Sequence record: PQ724394.1
DNA length: 64,000 bases
Source of the DNA: a phage
Strand: one strand, 5' to 3'
Position 1 is the first letter of the stretch; each line of letters starts with the position of its first letter. The notes under the pieces are model-generated. The model had not been told where the DNA came from, did not search any database, and worked only from the letters and a program-made list of their open reading frames with translations. The position numbers and the translations under genes were made by a program. Below, in pieces: positions 36,269-37,332 of the stretch.

Positions 36269-37126
36269 TCATACAGCCATCTTAGCCTTAATAGTAGGGT
36301 GCGATTCGTAACCTTTAAGAACAAAATCAGACGGCTTCATTGAATCAATCCAAGACAGTTGTGTCTTAGTGTCCCAAAGAATAAATTCTTCCGGTAAATT
36401 AATTTCAAGTTCACAAAGCTCTTTAGGTTCGCGACGAAGAACTTCTTGGCATTGTTCAACGTGATTAGAATAGATATGCGTATTGCCGCCTGAAAACACT
36501 AAATCGCCAGGAATAAGATTACACATCTTAGCTACAATATGCACAAGAGCGGCGTAAGAGGCGATATTAAATGGTAATCCTAAGAACACGTCAACAGAAC
36601 GTTGATACCACTGGAGGTCAAGATGACCGTTACGAACGTTGAACTGATAAAAACAATGACATGGTGGAAGAGCCATCTGGTCGATTTCAGCCGGGTTCCA
36701 TGCGGATACGATTTGACGTCGGTCATTAGGCATCTTTTTAATACGGTTGATAATTTCTACAACCTGGTCGACACCACCAAAATCTCGCCATTGTTTCCCA
36801 TATACAGGACCGAGTTCACCGCTATGATAACCTAAATCTTTGGCCTGATTTTCATAATTCTCGTCCCAAATAGTTTTACCGTCAATTAATGAACCGTGAG
36901 TACGGAAACGAAGGTCATTAACGTTAGTTGAACCCGAAAGGAACCAAAGGAGCTCAGCAATACAGGCTTTCCATGCTAATTTTTTAGTTGTTACTGCAGG
37001 AAAGCCTTTAGTTAAATCAAAACGTAATTTAGTACCGAACAGCGCAATTGTACCGGTACCGGTACGGTCGTCAGTTTCGTAGCCATTTTCCAGGATATCT
37101 TTAATTAAAAATTGATATTGTTTCAT
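36269..37126 (-). CDS. td: Thymidylate synthase (uninterrupted, no intron)
   Basis: Near-identical to T4 TS ([26 protein letters not shown]…PPCH…); start at ATG 37126, the ORF-track start being an upstream TTG. Confidence 0.9.
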   Translation of the reverse strand: MKQYQFLIKDILENGYETDDRTGTGTIALFGTKLRFDLTKGFPAVTTKKLAWKACIAELLWFLSGSTNVNDLRFRTHGSLIDGKTIWDENYENQAKDLGYHSGELGPVYGKQWRDFGGVDQVVEIINRIKKMPNDRRQIVSAWNPAEIDQMALPPCHCFYQFNVRNGHLDLQWYQRSVDVFLGLPFNIASYAALVHIVAKMCNLIPGDLVFSGGNTHIYSNHVEQCQEVLRREPKELCELEINLPEEFILWDTKTQLSWIDSMKPSDFVLKGYESHPTIKAKMAV

Positions 37127-37332
37127 TAGTTCATCCAAGAATATGTAGAAGGATATTTGGCAAAGTTAGGCTTATATCCTAATTTAACCATTTGTTTTGC
37201 TTTGCGGGTAAATCCTAAAGAACGCTCGCCTTTAAGATACTGTTTTGGTGTCATATGCCCTTGATGCATCTGCCGGCAAATAAAAAGGGCCATAGCATTA
37301 GGAACATCCTTAACTTTTAATTTATTGCTCAT
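37126..37332 (-). CDS. Small basic hypothetical protein sitting exactly between frd and td
   Basis: 68 aa; ATG overlaps frd stop (ATGA) and its stop overlaps td ATG (TAATG). Confidence 0.4.

Follow-up and report, generated by a model that had tools for sequence, protein, structure and literature searches.

The window analysed here, a stretch of 64,000 nucleotides (nt) from the phage sequence record PQ724394.1, contains a small open reading frame (ORF), hereafter Y, located between frd and td, the genes for dihydrofolate reductase and thymidylate synthase. Window coordinates refer to positions in that whole stretch. The genes and codon overlaps found at the locus are the following:

37126..37332, minus strand: Y, a basic protein of 68 amino acids (aa), PHROG 9550, identified from the ORF list, the sequence, the PHROG match, the ratio of nonsynonymous to synonymous substitution rates (dN/dS) and a structure model
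37329..37332, minus strand: ATGA overlap of the frd stop codon TGA with the Y start codon ATG, read in the sequence
37124..37128, minus strand: TAATG overlap of the Y stop codon TAA (37128..37126) with the td start codon ATG (37126..37124), read in the sequence
37329..37910, minus strand: frd, dihydrofolate reductase, 193 aa (Pfam DHFR_1, E-value 4e-19)
36269..37126, minus strand: td, thymidylate synthase, 285 aa, uninterrupted (Pfam Thymidylat_synt, E-value 1.5e-99, residues 2-285)

The original prediction, made from the sequence alone, had described a small basic ORF lying between frd and td and coupled to both neighbours through overlapping stop and start codons, and inspection of the sequence agreed with it on each of these points; the minus strand, on which the feature lies, had not been mentioned in it. 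In gene orientation, frd ends with GTA TAC AAA TGA and Y starts with ATG AGC AAT AAA; at the other end Y finishes with TGG ATG AAC TAA and td begins with ATG AAA CAA TAT, the last A of the Y stop codon being the first base of the td start codon. A GGA triplet is present within the Y codons TGG ATG, 7 nt 5′ of the td ATG. The deduced protein is strongly basic, with a pI of 10.26 and 13 lysine plus arginine residues vs 2 aspartate plus glutamate residues. A 701-bp query across the site was 98.0-98.6% identical to the Escherichia phages dhaeg, MN04, dhabil, CLB_P2, IME281 and EcWhh-1, and approximately 95% identical to JS10 and JS98; on the basis of these identities the window is assigned to a JS98-like Dhakavirus (Straboviridae, Tevenvirinae).

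Y matched the PHROG 9550 profile from end to end (E-value 4.2e-45, 152.9 bits, residues 1-68 against positions 1-68 of 68). Pairwise dN/dS values for the gene ranged from 0.06 to 0.19, and its synonymous sites were saturated in comparisons with phages Marfa, CIP9 and 4S, while the proteins could still be aligned. Alignments of homologs showed conservation of the protein down to approximately 33-45% identity, and the differences in length corresponded in the protein alignments to insertions of whole residues, with the conserved C-terminal motifs staying in register. Within the 21-22 sequences compared, which extend to 33% identity, residues K34, G40, M48 and G52 were invariant, and K4, K6, P11, R20, L51, Y53 and P55 were nearly so. 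Given the low dN/dS values, the full-length PHROG match and the conservation of motifs down to 33% identity, Y is, on this comparative evidence, a genuine conserved accessory protein-coding gene of T4-like phages belonging to an uncharacterised family, and the purifying selection acting on it argues that it is translated.

A tblastn search with the Y protein matched 238 phage records. Identity to Y was 97-100% in Dhakavirus, 95.6-98.5% in many Tequatroviruses, approximately 78% in Marfa-type Klebsiella phages, 68% in Enterobacter phage CIP9, 60% in Serratia phage 4S, and approximately 43% in some 72 phAPEC8-like phages, which belong to a different subfamily. An exhaustive profile search of 1.84 billion representatives returned 11 matches, including about ten new clusters, all of 70-96 aa, and a profile-seeded search of a collection of 5.8 billion proteins brought the family to 39 clusters in all, none of which carried a name or a domain. 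The one match of the exhaustive search that was not a small protein, of 1402 aa, aligned through six short stretches to profile positions 9-28 (E-value 1.3e-6); it is probably a repeat or compositional match and was set aside.

The ORF as an object is already in the databases, annotated and uncharacterised: most near-identical records label it as a hypothetical protein, as in the case of dhaeg_26 (QHR70570.1). This protein, Sf21 gp226 (YP_009619040.1), Marfa gp177 (YP_009850431.1) and CIP9 gp059 are members of PHROG 9550, and phAPEC8_0028 (AFU62604.1) is a member at 43% identity. The window ORF, 97-100% identical to annotated proteins and with no difference seen, is an ordinary member of this family, whose T4-like members keep the same position between frd and td. 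The gene was left unannotated in the reference records of JS98 (NC_010105) and JS10 (NC_012741). In JS98 a gap of 202 bp separates the td end at 144213 from the frd start at 144416 (2715-2916 of the extracted JS98 locus), and the unannotated sequence of both phages encodes a protein 99-100% identical to Y. In IME339 and Klebsiella phage EI a 42-aa version is annotated, whose length fits the C-terminal part of Y from Met27. The PYPS2T record names Y as a flagellar biosynthesis protein (1802-2008 of the extracted locus), a label supported by no Pfam or NCBIfam match. The label DUF4858, applied to Y in Shinka (MZ502379; 901-1107 of the extracted locus), was rejected after the window protein gave no Pfam match at E-values up to 1, and DUF4858 was not matched among 21 family members at Pfam E-values up to 10. 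In the literature, nothing specific was found on RB32ORF229c (see below), PHROG 9550, the frd-td slot or small T-even accessory proteins.

Comparison of the frd-td junction across T-even genomes, as the original prediction had proposed, showed that the Y form of the window differs from T4, and revealed four states of the slot between the two genes: Y, a second accessory gene designated X (the RB32ORF229c family), both, or neither. The direct frd/td overlap that the prediction had stated for T4 was confirmed, with 4 nt in common (frd 145109-145690, td end 145112), and Y was looked for at this junction and was absent. T4 reads GTATATAAATGAAACAATACC here. The window agrees with T4 in the flanking genes, in their order and strand and in the junction motif, and a coding insert of 204 bp parts the two halves of the junction; the ATGA nearest frd serves Y, and the start of td falls in a second AATGA copy that closes Y. 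RB69 (Mosigvirus) shows the same direct overlap as T4.

A 600-bp query across the T4 junction matched 515 records, with spans that were either uninterrupted or longer by approximately 204 bp, corresponding to Y, or by approximately 416 bp, corresponding to X, an unrelated ORF of 115 aa. The uninterrupted form was present at 100% identity in about 25 records (T4 and its laboratory variants, RB55, RB59, vB_EcoM_112, G28, F1, FN and FL12) and in a few more at lower identity. Y was found in all of the approximately 46 Dhakavirus records matched and in approximately 90 Tequatrovirus records, making about 136 records with Y at the frd-td site, and also in Marfavirus, Kanagawavirus and Serratia phage 4S; about 135 records besides the window have Y at an identity of at least 90%. 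X was present at an identity of at least 90% in 363 records, including T6, RB32, RB51, AR1, PP01 and HP3, and below 60% identity in a further 217 (580 phage records overall). By these counts, the uninterrupted T4 junction is a minority state, rare even within its own genus. The earlier view of the window junction as unusual is thus correct in that T4 differs from it, and incorrect in that the ORF is not peculiar to the window and T4 represents the rarer state; likewise, the word "inserted" describes the difference from T4 and not necessarily the history of the locus.

The gene order is frd-X-Y-td in Marfa and 4S and frd-X′-X-Y-td in CIP9, the X genes of these three phages being homologous to RB32ORF229c by alignment and tblastn. 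In coordinates of the extracted loci, the X genes lie as follows:

RB32, 1848-2195: X
Marfa, 2143-2496: X
4S, 1624-2004: X
CIP9, 1326-1661 and 1645-2004: X, two tandem paralogs

X sits at the very junction that Y occupies, and both are uncharacterised accessory genes of patchy distribution that coexist in Marfa, CIP9 (with its two X copies) and 4S. On the other hand, their sequences are unrelated, and X, of approximately 115 aa, is not codon-overlapped with either frd or td in RB32. Searches of NCBIfam and PADLOC gave no match for X; some records label it as a putative homing endonuclease or a glucose-1-phosphate adenylyltransferase, labels that are unconfirmed. Y adjoins td directly in every T4-like carrier examined, through TAATG or, in CIP9, through GTGA, and its start is coupled by ATGA to whichever gene precedes it (for instance in CIP9 and 4S), lying 4 nt away from it in Marfa. 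The motif TGGATGAxCTAATGAAAC is shared by the window, Marfa and 4S. The group I intron of td and I-TevI are both absent from the window, whereas T4, PYPS2T, Shinka and G3G6 carry both. A link between Y and these td elements was discarded, as PYPS2T, Shinka and G3G6 have Y together with the intron and Y occurs on its own in the window, Sf21 and IME537.

The edges of the inserts were also compared. The Y insert, which measures 204 bp between AAATGA and AACAATA in carriers, itself ends with AATGA; the 5-bp repeat AATGA that brackets it is the stop/start overlap motif itself and is too short to diagnose an element. The X insert of RB32 is bracketed by TAAATGAAA, a repeat of 9 bp, and was described by the RB32 annotators as "flanked by 9 bp repeat". 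The exact T4 junction would be restored by a deletion taking place between the repeats of either pair. The AATGA repeat fits a gain or a loss of Y mediated by microhomology, and insertion by microhomology would equally yield the junction structures of both Y and X. Over the 100 bp surrounding the junction, X-type flanks and T4 share 99.1% identity; the T4 and X forms are therefore close relatives that differ by the presence of X. Apart from the ATGA and TAATG motifs, the X and Y inserts have no homology at their edges, and these motifs may provide the microhomology by which genes are gained and lost in this operon.

Two kinds of mobile element were considered for Y, and neither is supported. 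The PeSL mobile cassettes of T4-type phages, reportedly described by Arbiol and colleagues in 2010, are said to consist of an ORF bracketed by an early promoter and a stem-loop; no promoter- or terminator-like site is present between frd and td on the coding strand, and the junction RNA is unstructured. A free-standing homing endonuclease or other self-mobile element is not indicated by the protein, which is of 68 aa and shows no nuclease-like fold, and no Pfam, NCBIfam or PADLOC match was obtained for any family member. Ectopic insertion and illegitimate recombination have been given as the origins of lineage-specific ORFs at junctions of T4-related core genes (Petrov et al. 2010, PMC2993671). 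Y resembles those cases in being a small novel ORF between core or quasi-core genes, with microhomology only and no signature of a mobile element. That review treats the phenomenon in general, and a mention of the frd-td slot was not found in it, whereas the exchanged tract, its boundaries and the likely donor genus are specified here.

The comparison of the window with Tequatrovirus PYPS2T revealed a sharp contrast between Y and its neighbours, with nt identities of 80.6% for frd, 97.6% for Y (5 differences in 207 nt) and 79.1% for td exon 1. The tract of high identity was located in the window at the following position:

37076..37332, minus strand: tract of approximately 97-98% nt identity with Y-bearing Tequatroviruses, comprising Y and the first ~36-50 nt of td, interpreted as a laterally exchanged cassette

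Mosaic structure was mapped site by site between PYPS2T and the window, with T4 as the third party. PYPS2T follows T4 through frd (95-100%), the last difference from the window lying 4 nt 5′ of the Y start; it then follows the window across Y and into the first ~50 nt of td, which hold 8 differences from T4; and from approximately nt 53 of td it follows T4 again (96%, vs 77% for the window). The same mosaic was observed in Sf21, Shinka, G3G6 and IME537, which together with PYPS2T make five Tequatroviruses, and its recurrence points to one introgression that would later have been inherited or spread within the genus. The N-terminus of the td product has one form common to Dhakavirus and the Y-type Tequatroviruses, and reads MKQYQDLIKDIFE in T4 and RB32. 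Residue 6 of td is Phe only in Dhakavirus and Y-type Tequatrovirus, being Asp or Glu in T4, RB32, Marfa, 4S and CIP9 and Tyr in RB69; since these other phages differ at this position, Phe6 is read as the Dhakavirus-derived state. This suggests a Dhakavirus-like donor for the Tequatrovirus Y.

The identities between the window and Marfa, CIP9 and 4S were 79, 69 and 62% for Y, 46, 48 and 41% for frd, and 81, 85 and 79% for td, respectively; the intermediate values of Y are what vertical descent together with the flanking genes would predict. According to the history that these comparisons largely establish, Y is an old resident of the site directly 5′ of td in enterobacterial T4-like phages, often preceded by X, with lineages now holding X plus Y, X only, Y only or, as in T4 and RB69, neither. 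The Tequatrovirus Y is a recent import, probably from a Dhakavirus-like donor, within a cassette of approximately 250 bp, whose left edge is the AAATGA junction and whose right crossover lies 36-53 nt inside td. A second mosaic was observed within Dhakavirus: the window is only 85% identical to JS98 over the first 500 nt of frd (37411-37910), and identity then reaches 100% in the final 78 nt and remains at 99% across Y, which indicates, from the identity profile, a further recombination breakpoint inside frd.

The expression of Y was considered in the context of the complete cistron chain, to which two further features of the minus strand belong:

37907..38248, minus strand: ORF of 113 aa upstream of frd, taken from the ORF list, its stop overlapping the frd start (ATGA); its counterpart is dhaeg_24
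38247..38275, minus strand: best sigma-70-like promoter match upstream of the cistron chain (TTGCTA, 17-nt spacer, TATAAT; 10/12), a consensus match only

The upstream ORF, frd, Y and td form in the sequence a chain of four coupled cistrons, with an ATGA or TAATG overlap at three successive boundaries (upstream ORF/frd at 37907-37910, frd/Y and Y/td). No promoter- or terminator-like site was detected between frd and td on the coding strand, where the number of such matches in the region was the one expected from shuffled sequence and not above it. No stable RNA structure was predicted around the two start codons (z-scores of approximately +1.0), and no Rfam match was obtained in the window at threshold. 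The Shine-Dalgarno match 5′ of Y is weak, consisting of GGA 12 nt upstream, and the sequence preceding the Y start is what td uses as its initiation region in T4. The genes are separated by no promoter, terminator or stable structure, so Y can reasonably be expected to share the frd-td message, and from this arrangement we infer that it is expressed from that message by coupled translation. Y would thus be an internal cistron that starts at the ATGA serving td in T4, and its last codons would supply the initiation region of td; because of these two features, translation by coupling is the most likely mode. The polycistronic message might start at the candidate promoter 38275..38247. On the 3′ side of td the window encodes a DUF4326 protein (Pfam E-value 1.6e-19; 35914-36324) that matches JS98 nrdA.1; its longest frame, with a TTG start, would overlap the 3′ end of td by 56 nt, and the dhaeg annotation uses a later ATG giving 97 aa and no overlap.

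The weak Shine-Dalgarno match and the very high cross-genus nt identity of Y could also be explained if the frame did not encode a functional protein and the interval were either a spacer for ribosomes passing from frd to td or a cis-acting DNA or RNA element, whose constraint would account for the nt conservation. This explanation is hardly credible. The dN/dS values and the saturation of synonymous sites vs Marfa, CIP9 and 4S under a conserved protein speak against it, homologs of Y without a downstream td exist, neither significant RNA structure (z-score +1.0) nor an Rfam match was found at Y, and T4 couples frd to td without any spacer. Furthermore, the high-identity tract continues into td and then switches from Dhakavirus-type to T4-type sequence, which is a signature of recombination and not of constraint. 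A cis-acting element fails as an explanation because the synonymous sites of Y are saturated and the tract ends at a clean switch inside td.

The genomic context of the family was also analysed outside T4-like phages. The gene phAPEC8_0028 lies in a series of more than 20 hypothetical genes, all of them small and pointing in the same direction, and seven divergent Y homologs on metagenomic contigs were found in similar arrays of small genes, with an RNA ligase, a PIF1-type helicase, a DnaB-like helicase or Phage_T4_Y05C as occasional neighbours. No td gene was present beside Y homologs in phAPEC8 or in the seven metagenomic contigs, and no neighbour recurred among the seven divergent homologs. 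Since homologs occur elsewhere without td nearby, the link between Y and td is a property of T4-like synteny and not of the family, and adjacency to folate and thymidylate genes is no evidence of a shared function.

These data bear on the proposal that Y is a partner of Td or Frd (a small subunit, a chaperone or a regulator) within a complex synthesising deoxynucleoside triphosphates, made in fixed proportion with td. Such a role would agree with the overlapping stop and start codons by which Y adjoins td in all T4-like carriers examined (Dhakavirus, Tequatrovirus, Marfavirus, Kanagawavirus and Serratia 4S), with the persistence of this adjacency where X genes part Y from frd, and with the cassette entering Tequatrovirus having brought the first td codons along with Y. 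The last point is simply explained by the position of the crossover, and Td and Frd are made without Y in T4, RB69 and more than 360 X-only Tequatroviruses. The Td proteins of carriers and non-carriers are 83% identical and show no Y-specific changes beyond the first ~50 nt that were co-transferred, and td is absent near the homologs of phAPEC8-like and uncultured phages, so a partnership with these enzymes is quite improbable. T4, RB69 and hundreds of X-only phages do without Y, which is dispensable in this sense, and we infer that its activity is unrelated to folate or thymidylate chemistry.

AlphaFold models of the protein were obtained first from 13 close sequences, with a predicted local distance difference test (pLDDT) score of 62, and then from 21 sequences including the divergent clusters, with a pLDDT of 83 and a predicted template modelling (pTM) score of 0.59. 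The predicted structure consists of an extended N-terminal segment and three helices (residues 13-24, 29-39 and 43-49), with a C-terminal segment packing onto the start of helix 1. A Foldseek search with the second model gave no match in the PDB (best E-value 5.8) and retrieved only its own family from BFVD. A helix-turn-helix or homeodomain-like fold was rejected, as the candidate matches (KorA, E-value 7.8, with the first model; a homeobox, E-value 5.8, TM-score 0.37, root-mean-square deviation 14) were at chance level. No Pfam match was obtained for the window protein at E-values up to 1 or for the 21 aligned members, and neither the NCBIfam and PADLOC searches nor a sequence profile search of the PDB gave a match. 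Conservation of Cys19 and His23 does not extend to the wider family, which makes a metal site unlikely. The loop that follows helix 1 contains a hypervariable position, residue 26, at which even near-identical alleles differ (H, R, P, Y and S). On these predictions Y would adopt an orphan, basic three-helix fold.

The extreme positive charge of the protein, its conserved Lys and Arg positions and its small helical core led us to propose a putative binding to nucleic acid, which we put forward tentatively, at somewhat less than an even chance. Y would act early in infection by binding a polyanion, namely nucleic acid (RNA or DNA), an acidic host protein being a less likely target; with either target the outcome would be host takeover or counter-defence, and not thymidylate synthesis. 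A different explanation is that Y is a counter-defence or host-takeover protein that blocks a specific host protein instead of nucleic acid, with the defence repertoires of hosts as the selective force. Several observations are consistent with it: Y is patchily present among close relatives, it has recently moved between two genera that both infect E. coli, unrelated phage groups carry it within arrays of small, tightly packed, co-directional genes of the type found in phage early regions, and it is a small protein with an orphan fold. Known protein-mimic inhibitors tend to be acidic, so the net charge of Y, approximately +11, would be unusual in comparison, and no similarity of Y to any described family was found. 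We regard this explanation as somewhat unlikely, though deserving consideration. A broader suggestion appears doubtful, in which Y, a small basic effector, would found a new fold family of such phage proteins and bind a specific host or phage nucleic acid or protein against a host barrier. If it were true, the repeated exchange of Y between co-infecting T-even genera would reflect strong host-dependent selection, and the frd-td slot (X, Y, X plus Y, or none) would be a compact counter-defence hotspot within an operon of nucleotide metabolism.

Taken as a whole, the account that we favour, in which Y is a real accessory gene with the slot history and cassette transfer set out above and encodes a basic protein of non-metabolic role, is probable. 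Several points weigh against it. The left crossover can be placed only between 3 nt 5′ of the Y ATG and nt 56 of Y, and because of this poor placement the recipient may already have had a diverged Y or an X. That the transfer went from Dhakavirus to Tequatrovirus is argued by parsimony, on the basis of a single derived td residue and of the distribution of the gene. A functional link with Td could lie behind the strict adjacency of Y and td, which holds in five T4-like genera. As regards function, translation is argued from selection and the activity is putative, the proposed binding to nucleic acid being drawn only from charge, size and helical content; the Foldseek search of the PDB with the model yielded no DNA- or RNA-binding fold (best E-value 5.8), and the Pfam, NCBIfam, PADLOC and PDB sequence searches were empty.

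Nothing in the evidence on Y suggests a new kind of system, and what the present analysis adds to an ORF already in the databases is the four-state slot and a precisely bounded cassette exchanged between genera. As an orphan protein with a confident model and no structural relative, Y could sensibly be included, at low cost, in screens for the function of phage early genes. With regard to annotation, a gene on which purifying selection clearly acts is missing from the JS98 and JS10 references. The clean mosaic provides a well-defined natural case of cassette exchange between T-even genera at a translational-coupling motif. Altogether, these results correct a T4-centred view of the locus: the textbook frd/td overlap is the exception among T4 relatives, and the frd-td junction is a small variable slot that accommodates one or two accessory genes.

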